This document shows, piece by piece, positions 1 through 51,458 of a DNA stretch of 62,903 nt (positions are counted from its first letter, which is position 1; every line of letters begins with the position of its first letter). This stretch comes from Actinomycetota bacterium. GTDB taxonomy: Bacteria > Actinomycetota > Acidimicrobiia > Acidimicrobiales > AC-35. The notes beneath the pieces were generated by a model. It searched no databases. It saw nothing but the letters and a program-made list of their open reading frames with translations, and was not told the DNA's origin. The stretch covers positions 18,788-81,690 of the forward strand of contig VAXP01000119.1 in the NCBI GenBank assembly GCA_005884125.1, in the 5' to 3' direction. Position numbers and translations under genes: made by a program.

Positions 1-1130
1 TGGGCCAGGAGGTCGCCCAGGCGCTCGTTCATGGCCGTCGACCCGCAGATGTCGCTGAACAGGATGGTCACCGTCCCATCGGGGGCGGTGGGGACGTCGC
101 CGTCCTCGGCCGGGACCGTCTGCTGCGCCTGAGCCGGCGGCGTGGGCCCGCCGGGCGTGGCCGTGGGCGCAGCGACGGGCGGAGCGGCGCCATCAGCGGA
201 GGCCGCGCTCGGGGCGGAGGCCGGGCCTTGGGCCGGGGCCGCGCCCGGGACGGGGGCGGAAGGGTCGGGCGGGGGCCAGGGGGGCTTGGGCGGCCGGGGG
301 GCGACGACGACGGGGTCGGGCATCCCGACCTGCTCCAGGGCGCGCTGCCACTCCTCCCGGGCCCGCTCCACGGCCCGCCCGGCGTGGCGGTGGGCGCGGG
401 CCACGTGCTGCTCCCAGTGCTGCTGGCGCCGACCGATCCTCTGCTGCTGGCGCTGGAGCTTCTCCTGCATGAGCTGGTCGATGCCCTGGGCCAGGTGCTC
501 GACGAAGGGCTTGTGGGAGTTGGGTCCCCGGCTGCGCACCTCGACCCCGCCCATCACGGGGAAGGCGCGTATCCGCACCACGGGAGTGCCGGGGATGGCG
601 GGCACGTCGGCCAGCTTGAGGTCCTTGCCCCCCATGATGGGCAGGCCGGTCAGCTCCACCTCGATGCCCTCGGGCACGTCGATGCGGATGCCGCCCATGA
701 TCGCCACCGCGGTGATGGTGAGCTCGGGGCCGGTGATCTCGGCCTGGCGCAGGTCCAGGTGGCAACCCCCCATGACGGCCACCACGGCCACGTGGTTGCC
801 CGGCCGCCACCGGCCCGTGCGCTTGGCGCCGCTCATGATGGCGACGACCCAGCGGCTGACCCTCCGGCGCCTGGGCTCGAGGGCACGCTCGCCCGTCGTC
901 GCCACCGCGGCCGACACGGGCTCGACGCTCCTGGGCAGATCGGCGAACACGGGCTCGATCTCGGCGCCGGAGCGGGCGGCGTAGACCGTGCCCACCCGCT
1001 CGGAGAACTCGTCCAGGGTCAGGCGGCCGTCGCTCGTGTGGCGCTGGAGGAGCTCAACGGCCCGCTCGCGGTCGGCGTCGGACAGGCGGTCCTCGGGCGC
1101 CGGGCGGCCGTCAGGCGGGCGGTCGGCCAT
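1..1130 (-). CDS. DUF1707 (SHOCT-like) + LiaF-C-like domain + coiled-coil + class III adenylate/guanylate cyclase fusion protein; C-terminus lies beyond the window edge
   Basis: Absent from the ORF track because it runs off the window. My translation from ATG 1130..1128 reads MADRPPDGRPAPEDRLSDADRERAVELLQRHTSDGRLTLDEFSERV (DUF1707 signature), then VAVVAVMGGCHLDLRQAEI / AIMGGIRIDVPEGIEV (LiaF/DUF2154-like), a Q/R-rich helix and a Pro/Ala linker. GTVTILFSDICGSTAMNERLGD (cyclase F-x-D-I-x-G-S-T motif) sits at the window edge. Confidence 0.75.
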   Translation of the reverse strand, partial: MADRPPDGRPAPEDRLSDADRERAVELLQRHTSDGRLTLDEFSERVGTVYAARSGAEIEPVFADLPRSVEPVSAAVATTGERALEPRRRRVSRWVVAIMSGAKRTGRWRPGNHVAVVAVMGGCHLDLRQAEITGPELTITAVAIMGGIRIDVPEGIEVELTGLPIMGGKDLKLADVPAIPGTPVVRIRAFPVMGGVEVRSRGPNSHKPFVEHLAQGIDQLMQEKLQRQQQRIGRRQQHWEQHVARAHRHAGRAVERAREEWQRALEQVGMPDPVVVAPRPPKPPWPPPDPSAPVPGAAPAQGPASAPSAASADGAAPPVAAPTATPGGPTPPAQAQQTVPAEDGDVPTAPDGTVTILFSDICGSTAMNERLGDLLA

Positions 1131-2037
1131 CGTCCAAGTGTGGCCCATCCCGCCCCTGGGCGGCATCTGCGCCGCCGGGGACCGGGCCCGCGGGCGCCTC
1201 CCCGGCCCGGGCGTGGATTGGACCCTCGACGTCCCTCAGCGACGGCGCCTTCCGCCCCGTGCGCAGGGCGATCATCTCGGCGCATACGGACACGGCCGTC
1301 TCCTCGGGGGTGCGGGCGCCGATGTCGAGCCCGATGGGAGCCATCACCCGGCCCAGGCCCTCCTCCCCGACCCCGGCCTCCCGCAGCCGGGCGACCCGCT
1401 CGGCGTGGGTCCGGCGCGATCCCATGGCGCCCAGGTAGCCGACGCGCGTCCGAAGGGCGGCCACGATGGCGGGGACGTCGAACTTGGGGTCATGGGTCAG
1501 CACGCACACCGCGTCCCGGGGCCCGAGCTCACCGCCAACCTTGGCCAGGTGGCGGTCGGGCCAGTCCACCACCACCTCGTCGGCCATGGGGAAGCGGGCG
1601 GGCGTGGCGAAGACGGGCCGGGCGTCGCACACCGTCACCCGGTATCCCAACAGCTTGGCCGCCCGCCCCAGCGCGGCGGTGAAGTCCACCGCGCCGAAGA
1701 TCACCATGTGGGGAGGGGGAGCGAAGGACTCGATGAACACGGCCACGGCCCGGCGGCGGGCCTGGCCCCTGGGGCCGTAGTGCCTGGTCGAGGTGAGGCC
1801 CGTCTCCAGCGCGGCGCGGGCGTCGCGCGTCACGACCCGGTCGAGGTCGTCGTTGCCCAGCGTGCCCAGCTCCGCCCCCACCGGTCGCACCAGGAGCTTG
1901 GCCCCGAGGCCCACGCCGTGCTCACCGGGGTCGCCCGCGTCCCCCGCGCCCTCCTCGGGCGTGAGCTCCACCACGGTGGCCAGGGCCACGGCCTCCTCCG
2001 CCCTCAGGGCGTCGCGCAGGGCCTCGTAGAGGGTCAC
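1111..2037 (-). CDS. XdhC/CoxI-family molybdenum hydroxylase maturation protein (XdhC_CoxI + Rossmann XdhC_C domains)
   Basis: ORF 1111..2127 contains MVIFGAVDFTAALGRAAKLLGYRVTVCDARP and PIGLDIGARTPEETAVSVCAEMIA, typical of XdhC. Start placed at GTG 2037, which overlaps the upstream TGA as GTGA; the ORF-track start at 2127 looks like an over-extension. Confidence 0.85.
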   Translation of the reverse strand: MTLYEALRDALRAEEAVALATVVELTPEEGAGDAGDPGEHGVGLGAKLLVRPVGAELGTLGNDDLDRVVTRDARAALETGLTSTRHYGPRGQARRRAVAVFIESFAPPPHMVIFGAVDFTAALGRAAKLLGYRVTVCDARPVFATPARFPMADEVVVDWPDRHLAKVGGELGPRDAVCVLTHDPKFDVPAIVAALRTRVGYLGAMGSRRTHAERVARLREAGVGEEGLGRVMAPIGLDIGARTPEETAVSVCAEMIALRTGRKAPSLRDVEGPIHARAGEAPAGPVPGGADAAQGRDGPHLDDGRPPA

Positions 2038-2351
2038 CAGTCGAGGGGCTCGACGAACACGTGCACCGTCCCCCCGCAGGTCAGCCCCACCGCGAAGGCC
2101 TCGTCGTCGGAGTAGCCGAAGGTGCACAGCCGGGCCACTCCGTCACCAGCCAGCACCTCCAGGGCCTGCTCCACCACCGCGCCCTCCACGCACCCGCCCG
2201 AGACCGACCCCGCCACCTCTCCGTCCTCGCTCACGGCCATGGTGGCGCCGGGATCGCGAGGTCCCGACCCCTCCACCGCGACCACGCGCGCCACCGCGAC
2301 CCTCCGCCCCGCGGCCCGCCAGCGCTCCACCTCGCCCAGAACCTCTTTCAC
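2034..2351 (-). CDS. Stand-alone XdhC_CoxI N-terminal-domain protein
   Basis: 105-aa ORF with VARVVAVEGSGPRDPGATMAV...GSVSGGCVEGAVV, matching the N-terminal XdhC domain. GTG start overlaps the coxE-like stop (GTGA at 2348-2351). Confidence 0.8.
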   Translation of the reverse strand: MKEVLGEVERWRAAGRRVAVARVVAVEGSGPRDPGATMAVSEDGEVAGSVSGGCVEGAVVEQALEVLAGDGVARLCTFGYSDDEAFAVGLTCGGTVHVFVEPLDW

Positions 2352-3478
2352 CGCGCGATCACCTCCGCCAACGATTCGAGGGCGGCCAGGGAATGGCCTT
2401 CCACGAAGGAGTCAACGTAGGGAAGGGCCGCGGCCATCCCTCGGGCCACGGGGGCGTAGCCGGGCGTGGCCTTGAGGGGGTTCACCCACACCACCCGGTG
2501 GGCCACCCTCCGCAGGCGGGCCATCTCGGTCCCCAGCTGGTCGGGGTCACCCCGGTCCCAGCCGTCGGAGAGGATGACCACGATGGCCCCCCGGGCCAGG
2601 CCCCGGACGCCCCAGAGGTCGTTGAAGGTGCGCAGGCCCTCGCCCAGGCGGGTTCCGCCCGACCAGTCGGGGACGGCCCGGGCCGCCCCCGCGAGGGCCG
2701 CGTCGGGGTCGTGCCCGGAGAGCTCCCGGGTGAGGCGGGTGAGGCGGGTGCCCATCGCGAACGCCTCCACCCGGCCCCGGCCCGCCACCGCGGCGTGGAG
2801 GAAGCGCAGCAGGGCGCGGGCGTAGGGCTCCATGGAGCCGCTCACGTCGCACAGCAGCACCACCCGCCGGGGCCGCATGCTCTGCTCCACCCGGGGCCGG
2901 CGCACCACCTCCCCCCCGGCCCGCACGGCCAGGCGCACCGTGCGGCGCAGGTCGGGCCGGCCGTGGCTACGGTGCGAGGGGCGCAGGCGGCGGGAGCGAC
3001 GCAGGGCTCCCACCAGGCGCAGGTCGGCCATGAGGCGGCGGGACTCCGCCAGCTCGGCCGGGCTGTAGACGGCGAAGTCCTTGTGCCTGAGCACCTCGAC
3101 GGGGCTGTAGCGCACGGCCAGGGTGGGCTGGGCCTTCTCGGCGTCGGTGTCCCCGGCGCCGTCGTCGCCCTCGCTGTCGTCGAGGGCCACGACCACCTCG
3201 ACGGGCGGGGGCGCAGGCGGAGGGTCGGGCGGCGCCCCCAGCCAGAAGGCGGCGAAGCCGCTGTCGTAGGCGGCCACGTCCTCCGGGCGGCGCACGAGCG
3301 TCGACCGGCCCGCCCAGTAGACGGGGCCGGGAGCGCCCAGGCCCACCGCGGCCAGGGCCCGGCGGTAGGTGATGACGGTGCCCAGGTCGACGTCGAGCCC
3401 GGCCCGCCGCAGCACGTGGGCGAAGGCCACGGCCAGGCGCTCGGGCTGGTCGGGTGGGATCGGGGCGGGCTCGACCAT
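2348..3478 (-). CDS. VWA-domain CoxE-like protein
   Basis: 376-aa ORF with the MIDAS-like motif VLLCDVSGSMEPYARALLRFLHA. It follows a MoxR/CoxD ATPase gene, as in cox clusters. Confidence 0.85.
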   Translation of the reverse strand: MVEPAPIPPDQPERLAVAFAHVLRRAGLDVDLGTVITYRRALAAVGLGAPGPVYWAGRSTLVRRPEDVAAYDSGFAAFWLGAPPDPPPAPPPVEVVVALDDSEGDDGAGDTDAEKAQPTLAVRYSPVEVLRHKDFAVYSPAELAESRRLMADLRLVGALRRSRRLRPSHRSHGRPDLRRTVRLAVRAGGEVVRRPRVEQSMRPRRVVLLCDVSGSMEPYARALLRFLHAAVAGRGRVEAFAMGTRLTRLTRELSGHDPDAALAGAARAVPDWSGGTRLGEGLRTFNDLWGVRGLARGAIVVILSDGWDRGDPDQLGTEMARLRRVAHRVVWVNPLKATPGYAPVARGMAAALPYVDSFVEGHSLAALESLAEVIAR

Positions 3479-3487
3479 GCCGGGGGC

Positions 3488-4372
3488 TCAGCCCTGGCGG
3501 GCGGCCGCGGCCCGGGCCAGGTCGGCGACGCCCGCCCCCCGTACCCGCTCCGCGTCCTCCCGGTACTTGAGCACGGCGCCCAGGGTGACCTCGATGGTGG
3601 CCTCGTCCAGGGTGGCCCGTCCCAGGGTGGCCAGGGCCAGGGCCCAGTCGATGGTCTCGGCCACACCAGGGGGCTTGTACAGCTGCAGCTCCCTGAGCCG
3701 CTCCACCGCTCCCGCCACCTGGCGGGCCAGGCCCTCGCCCGCCTCGGGGGCGCGCAGGCGGACGATGGCGACCTCGCGCTCGAAGCTCGGGTGCTCCACC
3801 CAGTGGTAGAGGCAGCGCCGCTTGAGGGCGTCGTGCACGTCGCGGGTGCGGTTGGAGGTGAGCACGGCCACGGGCGGGACCTCGGCCCGCACCGTCCCCA
3901 GCTCGGGCACGGTGACGGCGTAGTCCGAGAGGATCTCCAGGAGGAAGGCCTCGAACTCGTCGTCGGCCCGGTCGACCTCGTCGATCAGCAGCACGGGCGG
4001 CGGGTCCGCGGGGACCAGCGCCTGCAGGAGGGGCCGGCGCACCAGGAAGCGCTCGGAGTACAGCTCGTCCTCCACGTCGGTGCCGACCTCGCCTCCGCCC
4101 GCCGCGGCCCTGGCCTCCACCGCCCGCAGGTGCAGGAGCTGACGGGAGTAGTCCCACTCGTAAACGGCCTGGGCCGCGTCGATGCCCTCGTAGCACTGCA
4201 GGCGCAGCAGCTCGCCCCCCGTCCAGCGGGACAGGACCTTGGCCAGCTCCGTCTTGCCCACCCCGGCCTCGCCCTCGAGCAACAGGGGCCGGCGCAGGGA
4301 CAGGGCCAGGAAGACGGCGGTGGCCAGCCCCTCGTCGGCCAGGTAGCCGTGGCGGGCCAGCGCCTGGCTCAC
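3488..4372 (-). CDS. MoxR-like AAA+ ATPase (CoxD-like)
   Basis: Walker A LLLEGEAGVGKTELAKVL and Walker B VLLIDEVDRADDEFEAFLLEIL; about 294 aa, typical of MoxR/CoxD. Confidence 0.9.
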   Translation of the reverse strand: MSQALARHGYLADEGLATAVFLALSLRRPLLLEGEAGVGKTELAKVLSRWTGGELLRLQCYEGIDAAQAVYEWDYSRQLLHLRAVEARAAAGGGEVGTDVEDELYSERFLVRRPLLQALVPADPPPVLLIDEVDRADDEFEAFLLEILSDYAVTVPELGTVRAEVPPVAVLTSNRTRDVHDALKRRCLYHWVEHPSFEREVAIVRLRAPEAGEGLARQVAGAVERLRELQLYKPPGVAETIDWALALATLGRATLDEATIEVTLGAVLKYREDAERVRGAGVADLARAAAARQG

Positions 4373-4439
4373 GTCCTCGACGCCCGACGGCGCCCGCCCG
4401 CCGGGGCTCAGGTCGCTCAGCCCCCGGCCTCCCCGGCCG

Positions 4440-4907
4440 TCACCGGCCCCGCACGGAGGGAGCGGCGGCGAGGACGGCCTTGACGATGTTGTGGTAGCCG
4501 GTGCAACGGCACAGGTTGCCCTCCAGGCCCGTGCGCACCTCGGCCTCGGTGGGATCGGGATGCTCGGCCAGCAGGGAGACCGCGGCCATCACCATCCCCG
4601 GTGTGCAGTAGCCGCACTGGAGGGCGTGGTTCTCCTGGAAGGCCCGCTGCAGCGGGTGCATCTCCTGGCCCCGGGCCAGGCCCTCGATGGTGGTGACCTG
4701 GCCGCCGTCGGCCTGGGCCGTGAGCAGGGTGCAGGACTTCACCGACTCGCCGTCGAGCAGCACGGTGCAGGCTCCGCAGGACGTGGTGTCACAGCCCACG
4801 TTGGTGCCGGTGAGGCCGAGCACCTCGCGCAGGTAGTGCACCAGGAGGAGCCTGGCCTCGACGTCGTCGGTGCGCTCGGCGCCGTTGACGGTGAGCGTGA
4901 CCTTCAC
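4440..4907 (-). CDS. (2Fe-2S)-binding small subunit of a molybdenum hydroxylase (CoxS-like)
   Basis: [16 protein letters not shown] and [14 protein letters not shown]...[10 protein letters not shown] are the two 2Fe-2S cysteine motifs. Start set at GTG 4907, overlapping the large-subunit TGA. Confidence 0.9.
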
Positions 4908-7180
4908 GACCGCCCTCCCTTGGAGTCCTTGGCGTCCTGGATGGCCCGCCACACCCGCTCGGCCGTGAGGGGCATGTCGATGTGGCGCACGCCCAGGTGG
5001 GTGACGGCGTCGACCACGGCGTTGTGCACCGCCGGCGTCGACCCGATGGTGCCCGACTCACCGATGCCCTTGGCCCCCAGCTCGTTGAGAGGCGTGGGCG
5101 TCTCCAGGCGCACGGTCTCGAAGCTGGGTAGCTCGGCTGCGGAGATGAAGCCGTAGTCGGCCAGGTTCGAGGTGACGGGATTGCCGTCCTCGTCGTAGCG
5201 CATCTCCTCCAGCAGGGCCTGGGCCGCGCCCTGGGCCAGGCCCCCGTGGACCTGACCCTCGGCCAGCAGGGGGTTGAGGATGCGCCCGGCGTCGTCCACC
5301 GCCACCATGCGCACCAGCTGCACCCTTCCCGTCTCCGTGTCCACCTGGGCCACGGCCACGTGGGCGCCGAAGGGGAAGGTGGGACCGGCCTGGGTGTAGT
5401 CGACCTCGGCCGCCAGCCCGCCCCGGTCGGAGGCGGCCCCGGCCAGCTCCGACCACGACCGTGACACGGCGGGGGTGCCGGTGACGTGGAAGCGTCCTCC
5501 CACCTTGTCGAGAACCACGTCGTCCACGTTGGCCTCCAGGAGCTCGGCGGCCAGCTGGCGGGCCTTGTCCGCCACCTGGGCCGCGGCCTGGTTCACGGCC
5601 ACGCCCCCCGTCTGCAGCGACCGCGACCCGGCCGTGCCCTGGCCCCGGGGGACCACGTCGGTGTCGCCGTGGATGACCTCGATGTCCTCGATGGGTATGC
5701 CCAGCTGCTCGCTGACGAGCATGGAGAAGGCGGTGGCGTGGCCCTGGCCGTGGGGCGACGTGCCCGTGCGCACCGTGACCTTGCCGTCGGGCCTGACCTC
5801 CACCGCGCCGAACTCGCTGCCGGGGATGCCGCTGGTGATCTCCACGTACACGGACAGGCCGATGCCCAGCTGCACCACGTCGCCCGCCTCCCGGCGGCGG
5901 CGCTGCTCCTCCCGCAGCCCGTCGTAGCCCGCGGCCTCCAGGGCCAGGTCCAGGCCTCGGGCGTAGTTCCCGCTGTCGTAGGTGGTCCCCGTCGGGGTGG
6001 TGAAGGGGAAGGCGTCGGCCGGTATGAGGTTGCGTCTGCGCACCTCGGCCGGGTCCATCCCGATCTCGGCCGCGAACATGTCCACGGCCCGCTCCAGGGC
6101 GGCGGTGGCCTCGGGGCGGCCGGCGCCCCGGTAGGCGGTCATGGGCGTGGTGTTGGTCAGAAGCGACCTGCTGTTGAACTCGACCTTGGGGATGGCGTAC
6201 ACGCCGCTCGCCATGGTGCGGGTCATGAAGGGCAGCATGGCCCCGATGGCGGCGTAGGCCCCCGAGTCCTGGAGCACGGTGATGCGGTAGGCCTCGACCT
6301 TGCCCTGGCGCGACCCGCCCATCTCCACCTCCTGGACCTGTCCCCGCCCGTGGCCCAGGCCGACCATGCTCTCCGAGCGGGTCTCCACCCAGCGCACGGG
6401 CCGGTCCAGCTTGCGGGCCAGCCAGGCCACCAGGATCTCCTCCGGGTACGGGCCCATCTTGGCCCCGAAGCCTCCGCCCACGTCGGGGGCCACGACCCGG
6501 ACCTGGTCGGCTTCGAGCCCGAGCCGGGCGACGAGGGCGTCCTTCACCCCGTGGGCCCCCTGGGTGCTGGCGTAGTGGAGCAGGCGCCCGTCCCGCCACT
6601 CGGCCGCGGCGGCCCGTACCTCCAGGGGGCAGGGGGCCACCCGCTGGTTGACGATGCGCTGGCGGACCACGACCTCACACCCGTCGAAGAGGGACTCGTC
6701 CCGGCCGAAGGCGAGCTCGAAGGCGACGTTGGTGCCCACGTCGGGGAACAGCAGCACGTCCTGGGCCGCCGACTCCTCCGCGCTCATCACCACGGGCAGG
6801 GGCTCGTAGTCCACGAAGACGAGCTCGGCCGCGTCCGGCCCCTGGTAGCGCTCCTCCGTCACGACCACGGCCACGGGCTCGCCCACGAAGCGCACCACGC
6901 CTTGGGCCAGAGCCGGGCGGGTCATGGCCTGGTTGAGGAAGGCCATCTCCGGCGCGGCGGGGGCCATGTCGAGGTCGGCCGCACTGAACACGGCGACCAC
7001 GCCCGGGGCCTTGCGTGCTTCCTCCACGTCCAGCGCGGCGATACGGGCGTGGGCCATGGTCGAGCGCACGTAGGTGGCGTACAGGGCCCCGTCCACGCGC
7101 ACGTCGTCCACGTAGGTCCCGCCCACGGTGAGGAACTTGGGGTCCTCCTTGCGCAGGACGCGGTTGCCCAGAATGCTCAC
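4904..7180 (-). CDS. Molybdopterin-binding large subunit, xanthine dehydrogenase/CO dehydrogenase family, form II CoxL-like
   Basis: 758-aa ORF. The active-site loop reads [14 protein letters not shown] (form II AYRGAGR, not form I AYxCSFR). A GGGAGGGAG Shine-Dalgarno lies upstream of GTG 7180. Confidence 0.9.
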
Positions 7181-7264
7181 GGGTTGCTCCCTCCCGACGA
7201 AGCCGGTCCGCAGGTTACCCAGCGCCCCGCCGCCGGCGTGCGGGAGCGGGCCGGGCCGGGGCGT

Positions 7265-21440: not shown

Positions 21441-21511
21441 TTCGGGGGCTCCGGGTCGAACGGAGATTCACGGCTCCAAAGGCCGTTGTCCTGCCATTGG
21501 ACGACCCCCGA
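21441..21511 (-). tRNA. tRNA-Gln (anticodon UUG), CCA not encoded
   Basis: Folded by hand: acceptor TCGGGGG/CCCCCGA, D arm GTCC-AATGGCA-GGAC, anticodon arm ACGGC-CTTTGGA-GCCGT, variable GAAT, T arm CTCCG-TTCGACC-CGGAG, discriminator A, followed by CAG. 71 nt. Confidence 0.9.
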
Positions 21512-41226: not shown

Positions 41227-41898
41227 GTGACCGACGCCCACGTGGCCGTCCCGCCCATGGCACCGGAGCTGCTGGTGCGCGCCAGGGCCACCAAGGGTTT
41301 CATGCCCCACGACGAGGGCGTGGCCCTCTACAGCGCCGCCACCACGGCCGGGCTCACGGGGCTCGGCCCCCTCCTGGAGATCGGCAGCTACTGCGGCAAG
41401 TCGGCCGTGTACCTGGGCGCGGCGGCCCGGGCCGGCGCGACGGTGCTGTTCACCATCGACCACCACCGGGGCTCGGAGGAGAACCAGTCGGGCTGGGACC
41501 ACCACGACCCCTCCCTGGTCGACTCCCGCACCGGGCGCATGGACACCCTGCCCGTGTTCCGCCGGGCCATCGAGGACGCCGGCCTGGAAGCGGTGGTGAT
41601 CGCGGTGGTGGGCGATTCGGCCACCGTGGCCCGCCACTGGCACACCCCGCTCTCCTTCCTCTTCATCGACGGGGGCCACGGGATGGCACCGGCCTGGGCC
41701 GACTACACCGGTTGGGTCCCCCACGTCGCCATCGGAGGCCTGGTCGCCATCCACGACGTGTTCCCCGACCCGGCCGAGGGCGGCCAGGCCCCCTTCGAGC
41801 TGTGGAGCAGGGCGGTGGTGTCGGGGGGCTTCGTCCCCGACGAGGGGGCGTCCTGCGCCAGCCTACGGGTGCTGCGCCGGGTCTCCGACCGCTTCTGA
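41227..41898 (+). CDS. Class I SAM-dependent methyltransferase (Methyltransf_24 / cephalosporin-hydroxylase-like)
   Basis: LLEIGSYCGKSAVYLGAAA (SAM motif I) ...LFTIDHHRGSEE...FLFIDGGHG...LVAIHDV. Confidence 0.8.
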   Translation: MTDAHVAVPPMAPELLVRARATKGFMPHDEGVALYSAATTAGLTGLGPLLEIGSYCGKSAVYLGAAARAGATVLFTIDHHRGSEENQSGWDHHDPSLVDSRTGRMDTLPVFRRAIEDAGLEAVVIAVVGDSATVARHWHTPLSFLFIDGGHGMAPAWADYTGWVPHVAIGGLVAIHDVFPDPAEGGQAPFELWSRAVVSGGFVPDEGASCASLRVLRRVSDRF

Positions 41899-42927
41899 GT
41901 CCATGGCCAGGTCGAGCCCGGCGGGCAGGCCCGCGCCCCCGAACAGGCCGGCCGCCGGCCCCAGCCCGTCCAGGGCGGCGGCGGCCAGGATCACGGCCGC
42001 GGCGGTGTAGGTGCTGCGCTCCCCGCCCGGGAAGTTGACCTCCTGGGGATAGACGCGCCCCGTCCAGTAGGAGCCGTCGCTGTGACGGAGCTGACGCGTC
42101 CAACCCAACAGGCGGCGGGCGGCCTCGGTGAGCCCCGCCGCGTGCAGGGCCATCACGCACTCCGCCGTCTCCGCCACCGTGACCCAGGGGCGGTCGTCGA
42201 CGCAGCGCACGCCCCGCCCCTCCATCACGAACTCGCCCCACCGCTCGTGCAGGCGGGACCGGGCCGGGGCGCCCGTGACCGCGCCCGACAGCACCGGGTA
42301 GTACCAGTCCATGGCCCAGCGGTTCTTGGGCTCGAAGGCCTCCGGCCTCTGCGAGACGGCGTGGGCCAGGCTCCCGGCCGCCACCTCCCACTCCGGGCGC
42401 TCCAGGCCCAGGGCCTCGGCCGCGGCGACGGCGCAGCGCAGGCTGAAGTAGACGGACGAGGAGGCGGTGAGCAGGGCGAAGCGCCCGGGGCTGCCGTCGG
42501 CCTCGATGCACCACAGGATCTCGCCTCCCGGCTGCTGCAGCCGCAGGGCGAACCCGATGGCGGCCTCGACCGCGGGCCACTGCTCCTTCAGGAACCCGGC
42601 GTCCCCCGTGACCAGGTAGTGGTGCCAGGCCCCCACGGCGACGTAGGCGCAGCAGTTGGCGTCGAGGCGGTAGTTCTCCACCCCCTCGGCCAGGTAGTAC
42701 TGGAACCAGCTGCCGTCGTCGTGCTGGGTGGCGCCCAGCCACCGGTAGGCCCTCTCCGCCTCGTCCCACCACCCGGCCGTGTCCAGGGCCATGGCCGCCT
42801 CCACGTGGTTCCACGGGTCGGCGTGGCCGGAGGGAAACCACGGGATCATGCCGTTGGGGAGCTGGGTCTCGGCGATGGTGGCCGCCGTGGCCTGCAGCTC
42901 GGACGCGGTCAGCGCGGGCGTGGTCAC
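41863..42927 (-). CDS. (alpha/alpha)6-barrel protein with prenyltransferase/squalene-oxidase-type repeats
   Basis: Three DG-x-W repeats: QHDDGSWFQY, QQPGGEILWC, RHSDGSYWTG. GTG 42927 overlaps the upstream methyltransferase stop. It is the C-terminal part of the 715-aa composite ORF 41863..44010. Confidence 0.75.
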   Translation of the reverse strand: MTTPALTASELQATAATIAETQLPNGMIPWFPSGHADPWNHVEAAMALDTAGWWDEAERAYRWLGATQHDDGSWFQYYLAEGVENYRLDANCCAYVAVGAWHHYLVTGDAGFLKEQWPAVEAAIGFALRLQQPGGEILWCIEADGSPGRFALLTASSSVYFSLRCAVAAAEALGLERPEWEVAAGSLAHAVSQRPEAFEPKNRWAMDWYYPVLSGAVTGAPARSRLHERWGEFVMEGRGVRCVDDRPWVTVAETAECVMALHAAGLTEAARRLLGWTRQLRHSDGSYWTGRVYPQEVNFPGGERSTYTAAAVILAAAALDGLGPAAGLFGGAGLPAGLDLAMDSEAVGDPAQHP

Positions 42928-43637
42928 GGCGCCGGCTTCTCGGCGTAAACGACCAGGCTCTTGCCCAGGTAGGGGTTGAGCAGGCGTTCGGGCACGCGGG
43001 TCACGGGGGTGGCCGCGGTGATGTCCCACACCAGGAGGCGGTGGTAGGCCCGCACCAGGGGGTGGTCGGCCCGGTCCACCCCGACGGCGCAGCGCAGCCA
43101 CCAGTACGGCGTGTGCAGGGCGTGGGCGTGGTGCCAGCCCATCACGCGCAGGCCCACCCCTTGCAGGCGGCTGATGACCGTCGAGCGCCGGTAGATGCGC
43201 ACGTGGCCACCCTCCACGGAGTGGTAGGCGTCCGACAGGGCCCAGTTGACGAGCTCGGGCCCCCAGCGGGGCACGGTCACCGCCATCGTCCCCCCGGGCC
43301 GCAGCACCCGGGCCAGCTCGACCAGGGCGGCCGTGTCCCGGGGGATGTGCTCCAGCACCTCGGCCGCGATCACCCGGTCGAAGGCGTGGTCGGGGAAGGG
43401 GAGGGCCAGGGCGTTGCCGTTGACCGCGACTCCCGCGCCGCAGGCGGCCTCGCCCTCCTCCACCATGGCGGCCAGCAGGACGGCCACCTCCTTCAGCTCG
43501 GTGTCGGACGCGTCCAGGGCCACCACGTCGGCGCCCCGGCGCAGCGACTCGTAGGCGTGGCGGCCGCCGCCGCAGCCCAGGTCGAGCACGCGCTCGTGGG
43601 GGCGCAGGCCCAAGCGGGCGAAGTCGACGGTCAGCAC
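42924..43637 (-). CDS. Class I SAM-dependent methyltransferase (Methyltransf_11-like)
   Basis: RVLDLGCGGGRHAYESLRRGADVVALDAS (motif I), IAAEVLEHIP, LRPGGTMAVTVP. Confidence 0.85.
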   Translation of the reverse strand: MLTVDFARLGLRPHERVLDLGCGGGRHAYESLRRGADVVALDASDTELKEVAVLLAAMVEEGEAACGAGVAVNGNALALPFPDHAFDRVIAAEVLEHIPRDTAALVELARVLRPGGTMAVTVPRWGPELVNWALSDAYHSVEGGHVRIYRRSTVISRLQGVGLRVMGWHHAHALHTPYWWLRCAVGVDRADHPLVRAYHRLLVWDITAATPVTRVPERLLNPYLGKSLVVYAEKPAP

Positions 43638-44905
43638 GGCAGCGGCACCTCCCGCCCGGCCCCCAGGGCCTCCCGGTACTGCTCGGCCGTGGCCCGGGCC
43701 GTGGCCTGCCAGGTGAAGCGCTCGAGCACCCGGGACCGGCCCGCCTCCCCCAGCCTGACCCGCAGCTCAGGGTCGTCGAGGGCCAGGAGCAGGGCCGCGG
43801 CCAACGCCCCGGGGTCGCTCGGTGGAACCAGGAGGCCCGTCTCGCCGCTCCTGCCCACCACCTCGGGCAGGGCCCCGCCCGTCGTCGCCACCAAGGGCAC
43901 GGCGCAGGCCATGGCCTCCACCGCGGGAAGGGAGAAGCCTTCGTACAGAGAAGGCACGACCGCCACCTCGGCCTCGGCGTAGAGGCGGACGATCTCCTCG
44001 TCGGCCACACCGCTGACGAAGCGCACCGCGCCCCTGAGGCCCAGGCGGTCGATGGTGGCCTCGGCCCTGCTCTCGGGACGGGGCCGGCCGATGACGACCA
44101 GCTCCGCGTCGCGCTCGGTGCGCACCTTGGCCACCGCCTCCAGCAGAGGGACGAGGCCCTTCATGGGCACGTCGGCGCTGGCCGTCGTCATGATCCGCCC
44201 CGGGACCCGGGCCACGTCGGGCCGGGGCCGGAACCGGGACGCGTCCACCCCGACGGGCACGACCCGGACGCGCCCGGCGTCGACGCCCATCTGGGCGACG
44301 ATGTCGGCGGCCGAGGACGACGACACGGTGATGACCCTGGGCACCATGGCCGCCACCCGCTTCTGCATCCCCAGGAATCCGTACCAGCGTCGCAGGGTCA
44401 TGCGGCGCCTCACGGTGCGGGCGTGGGCCAGGTCGAGCTCCCGGTCCACGGTGATGGGGTGGTGAAGGGTGGCGACGACGGGCCAGCCGTCGTCCAGCAT
44501 CCCGGCCACGCCCCGGCCCAGGCACTGGTTGTCGTGGATGAGGTCGAAGTCACCCCTCCGCCCGGTCAGGAGGCGCCGGGCCCGGAGGCTGAAGGTCAGA
44601 GGCTCGGGGAACCCGCCCGTGCACATGAGGGCGAACTCGAGCACGTCGATGCGGTCCCGGAACTCCCAGGGCCAGGGGACGCGAAAGGGGTCGGGCTCGC
44701 GGTACAGGTCCAGGCTGGGCACGGGCACGAAGCCCACCCCGGGGTCGAGCACCGGATAGGGCTGGCCCGCGAACACCGTCACCCGGTGGCCGAGGGCGGT
44801 CAGCTCCCTGGTCAGGTGGCGGGTGTAGACACCCTGGCCCCCGGAGTGGGGGTTGCCCCGGTAGGCCAGGAACGCGACGCGCAGCCCCTCCCGGTCCCGG
44901 CCCAT
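43631..44905 (-). CDS. GT4-family (GT-B) glycosyltransferase
   Basis: N-terminal RVAFLAYRGNPHSGGQGVYTRHLTRELTALGHRV; C-terminal VVPSLYEGFSLPAVEAMACAVPLVATTGGALPEVV (E-x7-E region). Confidence 0.88.
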   Translation of the reverse strand: MGRDREGLRVAFLAYRGNPHSGGQGVYTRHLTRELTALGHRVTVFAGQPYPVLDPGVGFVPVPSLDLYREPDPFRVPWPWEFRDRIDVLEFALMCTGGFPEPLTFSLRARRLLTGRRGDFDLIHDNQCLGRGVAGMLDDGWPVVATLHHPITVDRELDLAHARTVRRRMTLRRWYGFLGMQKRVAAMVPRVITVSSSSAADIVAQMGVDAGRVRVVPVGVDASRFRPRPDVARVPGRIMTTASADVPMKGLVPLLEAVAKVRTERDAELVVIGRPRPESRAEATIDRLGLRGAVRFVSGVADEEIVRLYAEAEVAVVPSLYEGFSLPAVEAMACAVPLVATTGGALPEVVGRSGETGLLVPPSDPGALAAALLLALDDPELRVRLGEAGRSRVLERFTWQATARATAEQYREALGAGREVPLPC

Positions 44906-44926: not shown

Positions 44927-44944
44927 GTTGACCGGGCGGTCAAC
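44927..44944. terminator. 7-bp hairpin (GTTGACC-gggc-GGTCAAC) between the Nramp-type gene's 3' end and the GT4 gene start
   Basis: Perfect inverted repeat in a 66-nt gap. The function (terminator or operator) is not established. Confidence 0.35.
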
Positions 44945-44971: not shown

Positions 44972-46258
44972 TCAGCGCAGCCCGAGGAGCCCCTGCACTC
45001 CCTGGGCCAGGAACACCAGGGCCATGCCGGCCACGCCCACCACCGACACCCAGGCCACCTTGCGGAACCTGGGCCCGTTCACGGCGTCCCCCAGGACGCT
45101 GCGCCGGTTGGCCAGCACCAGGATGAACACCAGGATCACGGGCGTGATGACGCCCTGGAGGACCTGGGTGTCGACCAGCAGGCGGAACAGGCTCCCCGGG
45201 CGCAGGGCCACCGCCGCCCCCGCCATCACCTGCACGGTGAACAGACCCAGGAAGAGCGGTGCCTCGGTGAACGAGCGCGAGACCGAGCGCTCGACCCCTA
45301 GGGCCTCGGAGACCGCGTAGGACGTGGAGAGGGGCACCACCGCCCCGGCCAGGGCCGAGGCTCCCAGCAGGCCTATGGCGAAGAGCGTCTCCGCGCTGGC
45401 TCCGGCCACCGGCTTCAGAGCCAGGGCCGCGTCCTTGGCCGAGGTGAGGGGCCCACGGCCGCCGATGGCGGCCGCGGTGGCGATGATGATGGAGATGGAG
45501 ATGAGGTTGGCGAAGATGGCACCGGCCACGGCGTCGATGCGCTCGTAGCGGTACTCGTCGGGGCCGATGCCCCGGTCGACCACCCCGGCCGCACCGTAGA
45601 GCTGCATGTACGGGGTGATGGTGGTGCCGATGAGGGCGACGGCCAGGAAGGTGAAGTCGCGGTTGGCGACGAGGTGGGGAAGGGCCGCGTCCTTGGCCAC
45701 CTCCGACCAGCCGGGGTGGCCCAGGAAGGCGGCCACCGGGTAGGTGAAGAACACGAGCGACAGCACCAGGAACATGCGCTCTGCGTAGCTGTAGGAGCTG
45801 AACACCACCACGGCCCAGATGGCCACGGCGAAGACGGGGATGGACACGTAGCGGGACACGTGCAACAGCTCGAGGGCGGCGCCCACCCCGGCGAATTCCG
45901 ACACGACCAGGCCGGTGTTGGCGACAACCAGGCTCAGCAGGGCGAAGCTCGCCACCCTGACCGAGAACTCCTCTCGGATGAGGGCGGCCAGACCCTTGCC
46001 CGTGTAAGCGCCGAGTCGGGCCGACATCTCCTGGACGACCACCAGGGCGACGGTGACCAGCACCATGAAGAACAGCGTCCGGTAGCGGAACTGGGCCCCG
46101 GCCGAGGCGTAGGTGGCGATGCCCCCGGCGTCGTTGCCGGCGTTGGCCGCGATCAGCCCGGGGCCGGCCAGGGCCAGGTAGGAAAGGAAGCGGCGCAGCC
46201 GGGCGGGGCCCGTGTCGGACGCGGGATCGGGTCCCCCCGCCCCCCCCGAACCGCTCAT
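44972..46258 (-). CDS. Nramp/SLC11-family transporter with NRMT-like (Mg2+-type) binding-site substitutions
   Basis: GPGLIAANAGNDAGGIATYASAGAQFRY has TM1 DAGG instead of DPGN; ALIGTTITPYMQLY has TM6 T-P-Y instead of M-P-H. Start set at ATG 46258, 17 nt after the upstream stop. Confidence 0.85.
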   Translation of the reverse strand: MSGSGGAGGPDPASDTGPARLRRFLSYLALAGPGLIAANAGNDAGGIATYASAGAQFRYRTLFFMVLVTVALVVVQEMSARLGAYTGKGLAALIREEFSVRVASFALLSLVVANTGLVVSEFAGVGAALELLHVSRYVSIPVFAVAIWAVVVFSSYSYAERMFLVLSLVFFTYPVAAFLGHPGWSEVAKDAALPHLVANRDFTFLAVALIGTTITPYMQLYGAAGVVDRGIGPDEYRYERIDAVAGAIFANLISISIIIATAAAIGGRGPLTSAKDAALALKPVAGASAETLFAIGLLGASALAGAVVPLSTSYAVSEALGVERSVSRSFTEAPLFLGLFTVQVMAGAAVALRPGSLFRLLVDTQVLQGVITPVILVFILVLANRRSVLGDAVNGPRFRKVAWVSVVGVAGMALVFLAQGVQGLLGLR

Positions 46259-46274
46259 GGCGCGGGAAGGCGGC

Positions 46275-47612
46275 TCACTGCAACAGCCTGGGGAAGTGGA
46301 GGCGGCTGCGACCCATGAGGGCGTCGACAACGTCGTCGGCCAGGATGCGCCCCACGGGCCTGCCCTCCTCGTCCACCACCAGCAGCGACGAGCGGCGGGC
46401 CTCGGTGAGCTGCGATGCGACCTCGTCCACGGGAGCGTCGGGCCGCACCGTCACGGGCCGCTCCTCGCGCAGAAGCTCGCCCAGCGAAGCGTCGGGTGGC
46501 GCGACGACCAGGTCGAACAGGGTGAGGTCGCCGAGCAGCCGACCCTCCTCGTCCACCACGGCCACGGCGTCGATCTCCTGGCTGTGGTCGGCCATGTCCG
46601 CAAGGCGCCGGGCCACGTCGCTCACCCGCCCCTCCGGACGGGCCGTGGCCAGCACCGTCGTCATGAAGCCCGCGGCCTGATCACCGGGGTATCCGAGCAG
46701 CTCTTCGAGGTGGGCCGCGGTTTTCTCGGGCATGTGCTCGAGGAGCTCCTCCCGATCCTCCCGGCCCAGGTCGCGCAGCGCGTCCACGGCCTCGTCGGGC
46801 TCCATGGACGCCACCAGGGCCGCGGCGTGCTCGGGCTCGGCCTCGCGCAGGAGGGCGCCCAGCTCGTCGGGCTCCATCTCCTCCAGGGCGTCGGCGGCCG
46901 TCTCCCGCTCCAGGGCGGCCAGCAGCTCCTGGCGGGCGGGCCGGCCCAGGTCCTCCAGCAGGTCGGCCAGCTCGCCGGGGCGGAGCCGGCGCAGGCCCTC
47001 GTGCGAGGTGCGCAGCCGCAGCTCCTTCACCGCGTCGCCGAAGGGCTGGACCGCGGCCCAGTCGATGACCTTCTCCGGGGTGGGCCGCGTCCGCCACCGG
47101 GACGGCCCGAGGCGGCGAACGAGGGACTGGAGGCTCACATCCACCCCCACCAGGCGGATGCCCCCCAGCGCCTCGGCCAGGTAGAGGTCCGAGCCCCGCA
47201 CCACCTGAACCCCGTCCACGTCCACCAGCTGGTGGTCGAGGACGTCCTTGGCCAGCATCACCTCTCCCTCGCGACGCTCGAAGTCGCGCATGTCGAGCCG
47301 GGACGAGCGCAGCACGATCTCGCCGTGGGAGAGCTTCTCGATGGCGGAGGCGTCGATGAAGGCGAGCCGGCGTCCCACCTTGACCACCAGCCCGGTGACG
47401 GGCGGGTAGAGGTCGCCCCCGGCCATGCGCACGACCACGTCGACCAGCCTTCCGATCTCGGCCCCGGCCTGGTTGCGCACGGGCCGGCCGACCAGACCGG
47501 CCAGGGACACGATGGCGTCCCGCACGGCGCGCGTCGCGAGTATCCGACGGGAGCGCTCGTCGCGCCGGGCGCGCAAGCGGGGGGCACCGGGCAGCGGAGG
47601 ACGACGGGACAT
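46275..47612 (-). CDS. Soluble PRC-barrel-like + MgtE_N + tandem CBS protein (the MgtE cytoplasmic sensor without the membrane pore)
   Basis: PRC-like GAEIGRLVDVVV...VTGLVVKVG...; MgtE_N acidic helices LADLLEDLGRPARQELLAALERETAADALEEMEPDE...ASMEPDEAVDALRDL; CBS pair AGFMTT...VAVVDEEGRLLG / VTVRPDAP...LLVVDEEGRPVG. No TM segments. ATG 47612 has an AAGGTGG Shine-Dalgarno. Confidence 0.85.
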   Translation of the reverse strand: MSRRPPLPGAPRLRARRDERSRRILATRAVRDAIVSLAGLVGRPVRNQAGAEIGRLVDVVVRMAGGDLYPPVTGLVVKVGRRLAFIDASAIEKLSHGEIVLRSSRLDMRDFERREGEVMLAKDVLDHQLVDVDGVQVVRGSDLYLAEALGGIRLVGVDVSLQSLVRRLGPSRWRTRPTPEKVIDWAAVQPFGDAVKELRLRTSHEGLRRLRPGELADLLEDLGRPARQELLAALERETAADALEEMEPDELGALLREAEPEHAAALVASMEPDEAVDALRDLGREDREELLEHMPEKTAAHLEELLGYPGDQAAGFMTTVLATARPEGRVSDVARRLADMADHSQEIDAVAVVDEEGRLLGDLTLFDLVVAPPDASLGELLREERPVTVRPDAPVDEVASQLTEARRSSLLVVDEEGRPVGRILADDVVDALMGRSRLHFPRLLQ

Positions 47613-47966
47613 GGCAACCACCTTCCTGGGCGCGAGGGCTGCTGGGACAGGCGCCCTCCCGGCCACCGTCACGCTCCGGTCAGGAGCGGGAGGCAGGCAC
47701 CGTCAGCGCAGGTGCGAGGACCCGGGAACCGGCGTCACACCAGAGGGAGGGCGCGAGGGACACGGACTACTGGGGGGTTCACCCGGTTGCACGGCCTCAC
47801 CTCCTCCTCAGTCGACGGCTCGATCCATACGGTCGACCGCCCATGCTACCGGTCGAGTTGCCCGGCACGGCAGGCCCGAAAGCCCGAGGAGCCGTGCAAG
47901 CGGGCTTGTACGCTCCCGGCACCGGAGTCGTCCGCGTCGGGCGCGCCAGGGGAAGGACTGCCGACG

Positions 47967-50551: not shown

Positions 50552-50750
50552 CCGAGGTCGATGGCGCTCGACCGACGCGTCGCGCCACGGCGGAGTTCTC
50601 GGCTTCGTCCCCGATGTCCGGGTCCTGAGTCCGGGCGCAAGCCGAATCCCTGGGGCTTCCTTACCGCTTCTTGGGTCAGGGTGCTTGGCCCGGCGCGCCG
50701 ATCAATTCCTTCGAACTCGCTGAATGAATCAAGCCAACCGAGGAGCTGCA

Positions 50751-51458
50751 ATGGAACACAGGAAGGCCTTGGCGGTGGCTGGAGGAGTCGCCCTCCTCTC
50801 CCTTTCCGGATCTCTGGCCGTCGGCGCCACCGCGGGGCTGCTGGGCTTCACCGTTCCCAAACAGCTGGGACGGGTCGGCTCCTTCGTCCCCACATCGGTG
50901 GCGAGCGGCCCCGTCGCCGCGACCGCCCCTCGATACACCACCGCGGCCAACACGGGCTGGGCCACCCAGCCCGCGCCGGCCACGGCGGCGGTGGCACCGC
51001 CCGCGGCCGCGGCGGCCGCCGCTCCCACCGTGCCCACCCTGGCCGCGCCGCCGCTGATCGGCGGGGTCCAGGTGCAGGTCGCCCCGGGACAACCGGCGGC
51101 CGGCCCCTCGGCTCCCGCGGCCACAGGACCCATTCCGGCCCCGTCGGCTCCGCCCGCCGCCGGGCCCGTCGACCCCTCGGCCAACACCTCCATCCAGGCG
51201 ACGCCCGCTACCCAGCCCCCGCCCAACCCGAACACGTCGCAGCCGGCATCGCCTCCCCCGTCGTCCACCGATCCCGCACCGGCACCCCAGCCGGCTCCGA
51301 GCTCGAGCCCGTCGACCACGTCCACCACCGCCGCCCCCGCTCCCGCGCCGGCACCGCAGCCGGCCCCGAGCACGACGACGACCACGGCGGCGCCTGCCCC
51401 CAGCACCACCACCACGAGCACCACCGCCCCCCAGGCCAGCTCGTCCGCCGACGACTGA
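50751..51458 (+). CDS. Membrane-anchored Pro/Ala/Thr-rich low-complexity protein
   Basis: AGGAG Shine-Dalgarno 5 nt upstream of ATG 50751, an N-terminal hydrophobic segment ALAVAGGVALLSLSGSLAVGA, then a PAT-rich tail. A family-level function cannot be assigned. Confidence 0.55.
   Translation: MEHRKALAVAGGVALLSLSGSLAVGATAGLLGFTVPKQLGRVGSFVPTSVASGPVAATAPRYTTAANTGWATQPAPATAAVAPPAAAAAAAPTVPTLAAPPLIGGVQVQVAPGQPAAGPSAPAATGPIPAPSAPPAAGPVDPSANTSIQATPATQPPPNPNTSQPASPPPSSTDPAPAPQPAPSSSPSTTSTTAAPAPAPAPQPAPSTTTTTAAPAPSTTTTSTTAPQASSSADD

Follow-up and report, generated by a model that had tools for sequence, protein, structure and literature searches.

Organization of the locus

The DNA examined here is a 62,903-nucleotide (nt) stretch of an Actinomycetota genome of the order Acidimicrobiales (assembly GCA_005884125.1, contig VAXP01000119.1, positions 18,788 to 81,690), hereafter called the window, with a base composition of 71-78% G+C. 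This report concerns a two-gene locus within it, at 44972-47612, an interval occupied by two minus-strand open reading frames (ORFs). One of them encodes a transporter of the SLC11/Nramp family, which we assign to the NRMT clade; the other, directly upstream, encodes a soluble partner protein that combines PRC, MgtE_N and CBS domains. A candidate leader ORF precedes the pair. The coordinates of these features are collected in Table 1.

A preliminary description of this DNA had placed a soluble protein of 445 amino acids (aa) on the same strand, 17 nt upstream of the transporter gene. Length, strand and solubility hold, and the spacer measures 16 nt. The partner is 100% identical, over the same length, to a database protein (P0001) annotated as 'CBS domain-containing protein, MAG Actinobacteria bacterium'. 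Because that protein has exactly 445 aa, the start of the partner gene at ATG 47612 is confirmed.

Table 1. Features of the partner-transporter locus and its surroundings (TM, transmembrane helix; AF2, AlphaFold2).
Feature	Position in window	Strand	Description	Basis
Transporter gene, NRMT-type SLC11/Nramp	44972..46258	-	ATG at 46258, 428 aa + stop	
TM1 site motif	46121-46135	-	N-D-A-G-G; NRMT DxxG, canonical Nramp DPGN	
TM6 site motif	45608-45628	-	G-T-T-I-T-P-Y; NRMT TxxT, canonical Nramp A-x-x-M-P-H	
Spacer	46259..46274	-	partner stop to transporter ATG, 16 nt, no terminator	sequence and terminator scan
Partner gene, soluble	46275..47612	-	PRC-PRC-MgtE_N-CBS-CBS; ATG at 47612, 445 aa + stop	
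N-module, predicted tandem PRC barrel	46998..47525	-	partner residues ~30-205	AF2, Foldseek and Pfam PRC
MgtE_N acidic helical domain	46695..46997	-	partner residues 206-306	Pfam, Foldseek
CBS pair	46308..46676	-	partner residues 313-435	Pfam CBS
C-terminal tail, in place of plug helix	46278..46307	-	partner residues 436-445, S-R-L-H-F-P-R-L-L-Q	
Candidate leader ORF	47703..47792	-	29 codons + stop, GTG start, MQPGEPPSSPCPSRPPSGVTPVPGSSHLR	translation and comparative conservation
E-P-P-S core	47769-47780	-	GAA CCC CCC AGT	within leader ORF
Shine-Dalgarno-like sequence	47800..47809	-	GAGGAGGAGG, ends 7 nt before leader GTG	read from sequence
Perfect palindrome	44927..44944	-	GTTGACC-GCCC-GGTCAAC	read from sequence

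The transporter is a member of the NRMT clade

The transporter matches the Pfam Nramp model (PF01566) over profile positions 1-356 of 357, with E=1.7e-80. When it was compared with all PDB sequences, the top match, by a wide margin, was EleNRMT, the Mg2+ transporter of Eggerthella lenta (7QIA), with 318 bits and E=5.9e-94; the best MntH scored 74 bits, the plant Al3+ transporter (NRAT) 52 and human NRAMP2 38. Against the NCBIfam MntH model the score was 127 bits, for a cut-off of 430. The NRMT site is defined by DxxG in TM1 and TxxA/T in TM6 (eLife 2022, PMC8806188), and NRMTs have lost the proton-pathway histidines of helix 6b (PMC8806188). The window transporter reads DxxG and TxxT at these positions, so that, as the preliminary description had it, the canonical Asn and Met ligands are both absent. 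Its helix 6b, P-Y-M-Q-L-Y-G, aligns with P-W-M-M-F-F-N of EleNRMT, and this alignment shows His at neither position; i.e., both helix-6b histidines are missing. Placed by bit scores and site motifs, the transporter thus falls with the NRMTs rather than with MntH, as had been proposed. This assignment is well supported, on the grounds of the EleNRMT score, the DxxG/TxxT motif, the missing helix-6b histidines and the low MntH score.

Compared with EleNRMT (7QIA/7QIC/7QJI/7QJJ; PMC8806188), the transporter aligns over its whole length with about half of the residues identical (phmmer), and it is 41-42% identical to close Eggerthellaceae homologues (tblastn). The two proteins share the TM1 sequence 'AGNDAGG', a Thr at the first TM6 site position, the helix-10 Gln, the helix-3 Glu and the lack of the helix-6b His. 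In TM6 they differ: the window transporter has T-T-I-T-P-Y where EleNRMT has T-T-I-A-P-W. Judged by this motif, the window transporter is part of a putative '[T/S]-P-Y' sub-clade, separate from the 'A-P-W' sub-clade of EleNRMT. The first TM6 Thr is required for Mg2+ in EleNRMT (PMC8806188). By homology with that protein, the window transporter would import hydrated Mg2+ without proton coupling, and probably Mn2+ as well.

The partner joins a predicted tandem PRC barrel to an MgtE-like N and CBS half

Homologues of the partner are abundant in the database (more than 3500, mostly 443-450 aa). Pfam identifies MgtE_N (PF03448, E=1.7e-23) and the CBS pair (E=8.8e-18), while the PRC match is weak: the whole protein scores 19.0 bits, and its first 220 aa taken by themselves score 21.2 bits, which equals the cut-off. 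Acidic residues outnumber basic ones in the MgtE_N segment, with 29 Asp/Glu versus 11 Lys/Arg in 101 aa. The best match in a sequence search of the PDB is the cytosolic domain of Thermus thermophilus MgtE (2yvy, E=6.6e-25). Pfam detects no MgtE membrane domain, and nowhere are 15 or more consecutive residues uncharged. Because the five-helix pore domain is missing, the protein ends 10 residues past the second CBS domain and no long uncharged run exists, the partner is not an MgtE channel. The domain assignments of the preliminary description, namely a PRC-like N-terminus, an acidic MgtE_N domain and a CBS pair with no membrane domain, are thereby borne out, and the profile searches agree with them for both proteins of the pair.

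A structural model of the partner was obtained with AF2 from 74 homologues, with a pLDDT (the confidence measure of the model) of 82.7. It consists of two beta-barrel subdomains, an MgtE_N bundle, a CBS pair and a tail. According to the predicted secondary structure, barrel 1 spans residues ~34-101 and barrel 2 residues ~117-200. In a Foldseek search with a separate model of residues 25-205, PRC-barrel proteins were the only matches; the best was CdpB1/CdpB2 (8QZO; E=2e-6, template-modeling score 0.55-0.65), followed by the H subunits of photosynthetic reaction centres, RimM and small PRC proteins. Because this model resembles PRC-barrel proteins alone, we assign the N-terminal half of the partner as a predicted tandem PRC barrel, a fold call made on structures of moderate confidence (pLDDT 73-83). 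CdpB1/CdpB2 from Archaeoglobus fulgidus is the best structural match over both barrels, yet at 14-15% identity the likeness is one of fold only; both proteins serve archaeal cell division and are unconnected with metal transport. The N-module contains many invariant residues, and no other part of the partner is as strongly conserved.

The C-terminal half resembles MgtE cytosolic domains closely, with target-normalised template-modeling scores of 0.80-0.89 and E ~1e-18 in Foldseek. The Mg2+ ligands of T. thermophilus MgtE (TtMgtE) were placed on the partner by phmmer alignment together with a conservation table of the 74 homologues. Acidic counterparts are found for five of the eight cytosolic ligands. 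Four of them are invariant, namely D241 (E59 in TtMgtE), D273 (D91), D427 (D247) and D430 (D250), while D277 (D95) is the majority residue at its position. The ligand D226 is lost, replaced by an invariant arginine, R406. E258 and D259, in the plug helix, have no counterpart, as the partner ends with the tail listed in Table 1. MgtE-like regulation by ATP was considered and rejected: the pocket residues Y170, R187 and F227 align with A, F and R (R407), so that modulation of the partner by ATP as in MgtE is unlikely. In sum, like TtMgtE (2YVX/2YVY/2ZY9), the partner has the N domain, the CBS pair and acidic counterparts of five of the ligands; unlike it, it lacks the pore and plug helix, has replaced D226 and the ATP-pocket residues, and carries an extra tandem PRC module. 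Any action of the partner would differ from that of MgtE in being exerted in trans, on an unrelated carrier of the LeuT fold.

Two further elements of this half are of note. The sequence R-R-S-S in the second CBS domain (partner residues 406-409; 46386-46397, minus strand), in which R406 and S409 are invariant, stands at the position of D226-F227 of TtMgtE; the replacement of these Mg2+ and ATP contacts suggests an altered ligand pocket or interface. The C-terminal tail has low pLDDT and is disordered in isolation in the AF2 model. Among the 74 homologues P441 is invariant and R437, H439 and F440 are nearly so; the motif [RK]xHFPR[LF]L is kept at most related genome loci, and the tail of the Eggerthellaceae partners differs.

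The partner accompanies the transporter across genomes

A search that took one genome for each species yielded 530 relatives of the transporter, and the best 80 (62-75% identity) were used to compare loci. These are mostly from Acidimicrobiia, and include Mycolicibacterium, Pseudonocardia, Amycolatopsis and Acidithrix. A partner homologue lies directly upstream on the same strand at 78 of the 80 loci, and the other two have less than 200 nt of upstream DNA. The linkage, with the same order and strand in 78/78 testable loci, is far beyond chance, and the co-conservation expected from the preliminary description is thus observed. Taking the nearest in-frame start, a choice that skews the counts to short spacing, the genes overlap by 4 nt in 28/71 pairs, and the gap is between -4 and +20 nt in 55/71. 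The Eggerthellaceae NRMTs that are 87-91% identical to EleNRMT likewise follow a gene of 450-453 aa with PRC, MgtE_N and CBS domains.

One genome (locus L060) has two divergent partner-NRMT pairs, at 950-3993 (minus strand) and 4368-7227 (plus strand), each with its own partner paralogue. The second partner shows ~33% identity and differs in its C-terminal tail; the second NRMT has 564 aa, the site motifs GDNDAGG and GTTVAPW, and extensions at both termini. Locus L059, and probably L051 as well, has the same second partner hit, and both are likely to share the two-pair arrangement.

The N-module (residues 25-205) was searched with phmmer against 1.84 billion representative proteins, which gave 1757 clusters with lengths peaking at ~445 aa. 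The idea that the N-module also occurs within full-length MgtE channels was dropped, since no such lengths were seen among the matches. A candidate fusion of partner and transporter, the 604-aa protein P0151, was rejected as a frameshifted gene call without Pfam domains. The matches include short partners of 227-292 aa that consist of the PRC tandem and at most part of the MgtE_N helices, with the CBS pair missing. Short partners were directly upstream of an NRMT-type gene in 5/5 independent cases inspected, with overlapping genes in 4/5 (L071, from Amycolatopsis pigmentata, 5234-5917; L081, 1515-2243; L082, 5001-5729; L087, 693-1421; L088/L089, 4001-4879 in L088). Because PRC-only partners still adjoin NRMT genes, the PRC tandem is the constant companion of the transporter. 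Judged by this architecture, the PRC tandem would be the element associated with the transporter, and MgtE_N plus CBS an add-on sensor.

The same observation could be taken further, in that the partner might be a structural or assembly 'beta subunit', whose PRC tandem binds, stabilises or localises the NRMT while the MgtE_N and CBS domains are dispensable or repurposed. Such a role would account for partners that lack the CBS domains and most of MgtE_N and yet accompany NRMT genes, and for the N-module being the best-conserved part of the protein. In solved relatives, moreover, PRC barrels are protein-protein interaction modules, and EleNRMT was unstable in detergent and required stabilising consensus mutations (PMC8806188). 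The full MgtE_N and CBS half is nevertheless kept in the large majority of loci, and its four invariant MgtE-type Mg2+ ligands are hard to explain without metal sensing. We therefore regard a purely structural subunit as unlikely, and prefer a partner that senses Mg2+ and acts on the transporter, as set out in the Discussion.

A conserved candidate E-P-P-S leader ORF precedes the pair

No known riboswitch was found upstream of the pair: Rfam searches gave no M-box in the window, whether at the gathering threshold or with matches up to E<=10 allowed, and the nine related loci examined lack one too. The only match in the window at the gathering level is a tRNA gene at 21443-21510 (minus strand). 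Instead, the upstream region contains a candidate leader ORF encoding the peptide (GTG)M-Q-P-G-E-P-P-S-S-P-C-P-S-R-P-P-S-G-V-T-P-V-P-G-S-S-H-L-R*. In an alignment of upstream regions, the conserved block consists of a Shine-Dalgarno (SD) sequence, kept as GGAGG(TG), a start codon, 2-8 codons, and the motif [E/D/Q]-P-P-S, encoded by GAR CCN CCN AGT. The window and 43 related loci have the strict form, and variants occur in ~9 more (MLGDPSSTPPA in six loci, MPAGDIPHS in two and MDDEPPGQ in one). The E-P-P-S codons vary only at the third position of each Pro codon, a pattern that marks the leader as coding sequence, and Ser is encoded throughout by the rare AGT. The remainder of the peptide is unconserved in sequence and in length (11-45 aa, median 22), and a median of 88 nt separates the end of the ORF from the partner gene.

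The evidence for the E-P-P-S leader is entirely comparative. Within the window alone the motif has one match for 0.48 expected, which is not significant. In 2.13 Mb of fetched DNA, with both strands searched, GARCCNCCNAGT occurs 41 times, and 38 of these occurrences are at the leader position. The 60 nt that follow the motif are rich in C and poor in G (24.9 C versus 16.7 G) and resemble a Rho loading site. The Pro-Pro codons (CCNCC) resemble an anti-SD and, in some of the predicted folds, base-pair with an SD, so an RNA-level role of these codons may be possible.

A metagenome scan for the SD-start-EPPS pattern returned at least 80 loci, and of the 80 that were read 45 had in-frame matches; 36 of these were short ORFs, 29 of them followed by 600 nt or more of sequence. 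Among these 29 of the matches listed, the gene after the leader was the partner (followed by NRMT) in 12, corA in seven, a long NRMT paralogue without partner in one, and another or unknown gene in nine. The CorA genes behind leaders match Pfam PF01544 (E=2e-59 and 5e-64) and encode the YGMN motif. Because the same leader is common to corA and to the NRMT operon, it constitutes independent genomic evidence for a role of the operon in Mg2+ homeostasis.

The leader without partner was seen in a metagenome contig (L145, minus strand): counted on the reverse complement, the leader starts at position 2789, and 219 nt separate it from the downstream gene for a 594-aa NRMT paralogue, without an intervening partner gene. 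From this arrangement, some NRMTs have no partner and yet have the leader.

Short ORFs with conserved proline codons are known from the 5' leaders of Mg2+ transporter genes of different families in Salmonella, namely mgtL (upstream of mgtA) and mgtP (upstream of mgtCBR) (PMC6460261), and the E-P-P-S leaders are similar in this respect. They differ from mgtL and mgtP in belonging to another phylum with no sequence relationship, in their fixed core, with E-P-P-S at codons ~4-10 and AGT as the invariant Ser codon, and in that no attenuator structure was found at them. The comparison suggests that the E-P-P-S leader is a candidate Mg2+-responsive leader of the mgtL kind.

Flanking regions

The palindrome listed in Table 1 lies 28 nt past the transporter stop codon and 22 nt ahead of the next gene, which encodes a GT4 glycosyltransferase (ATG at 44905). 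It was not scored as a terminator because it lacks a T-run; its role could be that of a terminator hairpin without T-run or of a site bound by a regulator. The region 3' of the transporter gene (41863-44905, minus strand) encodes the glycosyltransferase, a class I S-adenosylmethionine (SAM) methyltransferase and a 355-aa protein, for which the only Pfam match is weak and sub-threshold (GH95 catalytic domain). An extended operon including these three genes was considered and rejected: they are syntenic with the NRMT pair in only 16-18/80 related loci, and are therefore outside the conserved unit. Elsewhere in the window, an ORF at 50724-51458 (plus strand) encodes a 244-aa protein rich in Ala, Pro and Thr, with a signal-peptide-like N-terminus, probably a low-complexity protein that is either secreted or associated with the cell wall.

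Discussion

The pairing described here was not new in kind. While the preliminary description knew of no characterised example, Shin et al. (2014, PLoS Genet, PMC4072509) had found the NrmT group through M-box riboswitches, had noted that most NrmT genes adjoin a gene for a homologue of MgtE's cytoplasmic domain, and had drawn 'mgtE-nramp operons'. They also speculated that the partner provides cytoplasmic feedback regulation or acts as a metal chaperone (PMC4072509). As in the NrmT operons of Clostridium acetobutylicum (Ca_c0685, Ca_c3329; PMC4072509), the window transporter gene is directly 3' of a gene for an MgtE-cytoplasmic-domain homologue. The locus is thus an ordinary actinobacterial copy of the operon reported in 2014, the idea of feedback was published too, and the proposal of regulation in trans re-derives that published hypothesis.

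The locus differs from that precedent in two respects. First, unlike the operons of Clostridia, it has the E-P-P-S leader ORF and not an M-box, although the M-box is not a defining feature of NrmT operons, because the 2014 paper describes members without one (PMC4072509). Second, whereas that paper describes a small partner protein and nowhere mentions a PRC barrel (PMC4072509), the window partner has 445 aa and a predicted tandem PRC N-half. The eLife 2022 study of EleNRMT treats the transporter alone; its text contains neither 'operon', 'genomic context' nor 'CBS', and its mentions of MgtE do not refer to a partner gene (PMC8806188). Later papers that could be searched contain nothing more on the NRMT partner. 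In a searchable literature that is incomplete, nothing was found on the combination of PRC barrel, MgtE and CBS domains, and nothing relevant on proline leaders of actinobacterial Mg2+ transporters, though a prior description of either is possible; the nearest report on leaders concerns uORFs (upstream ORFs) associated with the M-box in Mycobacterium tuberculosis, which encode a different peptide. Three points are absent from the papers that could be searched: the tandem PRC module together with PRC-only partners, the retention of most MgtE Mg2+ ligands with loss of the ATP pocket and plug, and the E-P-P-S leader. Of our additions, the PRC tandem as the minimal partner, a reading of predicted structures, and the leader shared with corA, a reading of aligned sequences, could be new.

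These observations can be combined in the following model. The tandem PRC module, perhaps together with the conserved tail, would dock the partner on the cytoplasmic face of the transporter. Rising cytosolic Mg2+ would then bridge the retained acidic ligands between MgtE_N and the CBS domains, as in MgtE, and the compacted partner would lock the transporter in a non-transporting state; that is, uptake would be subject to fast feedback inhibition. Expression of the operon would probably be set by the E-P-P-S leader ORF, in place of the M-box of Clostridia, a step for which we rely on comparative genomics only. Ribosome pausing at the Pro-Pro codons may report Mg2+ or translation status and so tune the operon, in a manner comparable to mgtL and mgtP of Salmonella. 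The central element, regulation of the transporter in trans by the partner, is one that we infer from the two sequences and their arrangement. We give the Mg2+-gating model as a whole, leader control included, a little better than an even chance.

Several results weigh against it. With respect to the partner, the plug helix with E258 and D259 is missing and D226 has become an invariant Arg. No fusion of partner and transporter was found among the best 150 of the 1757 N-module representatives. In the only published test, with the A. capsulatum pair in Bacillus subtilis, co-expression of the partner left rescue unchanged, and the A. capsulatum transporter rescued the Mn2+ defect rather than the low-Mg2+ defect (PMC4072509). 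Both EleNRMT (PMC8806188) and the C. acetobutylicum NrmTs (PMC4072509) work without a partner. With respect to the leader, about one third of the related loci have no recognisable E-P-P-S leader, the predicted fold of the leader RNA does not exceed shuffled sequence in stability (minimum free energy z=0.10), and no intrinsic terminator was found at the leader and operon. The possibility that the C-rich tract of the uORF masks the partner SD was rejected, as it held in 2/40 leaders.

The lack of fusions and the negative co-expression test (PMC4072509) are what would be expected if the two proteins were merely co-expressed without contact, with the partner serving as a general cytosolic sensor of Mg2+ or nucleotides or as a Mg2+ buffer; CBS-pair proteins are, indeed, often independent regulators. 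Mere co-expression is at odds, however, with adjacency at 78/78 loci with frequently overlapping stop and start codons, with the paralogue-specific pairing inside one genome, and with the presence of N-module proteins beside NRMT genes in every case examined, while the loss of the canonical ATP pocket disfavors a nucleotide sensor of the usual type. We consider this arrangement very improbable, and retain the model in which the partner contacts the transporter.

The metal itself must also be considered. The pair might handle Mn2+ or another transition metal, with the transporter mainly an Mn2+ importer and the partner responsive to Mn2+. The A. capsulatum protein, an NrmT-group member likewise neighboured by an MgtE fragment and lacking an M-box, rescued a defect in Mn2+ transport, and rescued a Mg2+ defect only at millimolar Mg2+ (PMC4072509); EleNRMT carries Mn2+ besides Mg2+ (PMC8806188); and the last site position differs between the window transporter (TxxT) and EleNRMT (TxxA). 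On the other hand, the combination DxxG-TxxT is within the NRMT consensus and includes the TM6 Thr that EleNRMT needs for Mg2+ (PMC8806188), the leader ORF is common to the operon and to genes of the CorA Mg2+ channel, and the Mg2+ ligands of MgtE are kept in the partner. A system devoted to Mn2+ is thus distinctly unlikely in our view, and Mg2+ remains the preferred substrate and signal of the gating model.

A bolder claim joins the two potentially new points. Its first part is that an undescribed leader peptide of Actinomycetota, responsive to Mg2+ or to translation status, controls at least two unrelated Mg2+ uptake systems, corA and the partner-nrmT operon, NRMT paralogues included; its second part is that the tandem PRC module, and not the MgtE-like half, is the obligatory NRMT-binding subunit. 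We advance this joint claim tentatively, as falling somewhat short of an even chance. If it is true, the leader would be functionally analogous to the enterobacterial mgtL, mgtP and corL.

NRMTs are the fourth class of bacterial Mg2+ importers, and the role of their near-universal MgtE-like partner has been in question since 2014. The comparison made here narrows that question to a partner whose PRC tandem never leaves the transporter, whose ligands are kept, whose ATP pocket is lost and whose tail is invariant. Should the leader prove functional, high-GC Gram-positive bacteria, in which the regulation of Mg2+ is otherwise known mainly through the M-box, would provide a new case of sensing by a leader peptide.

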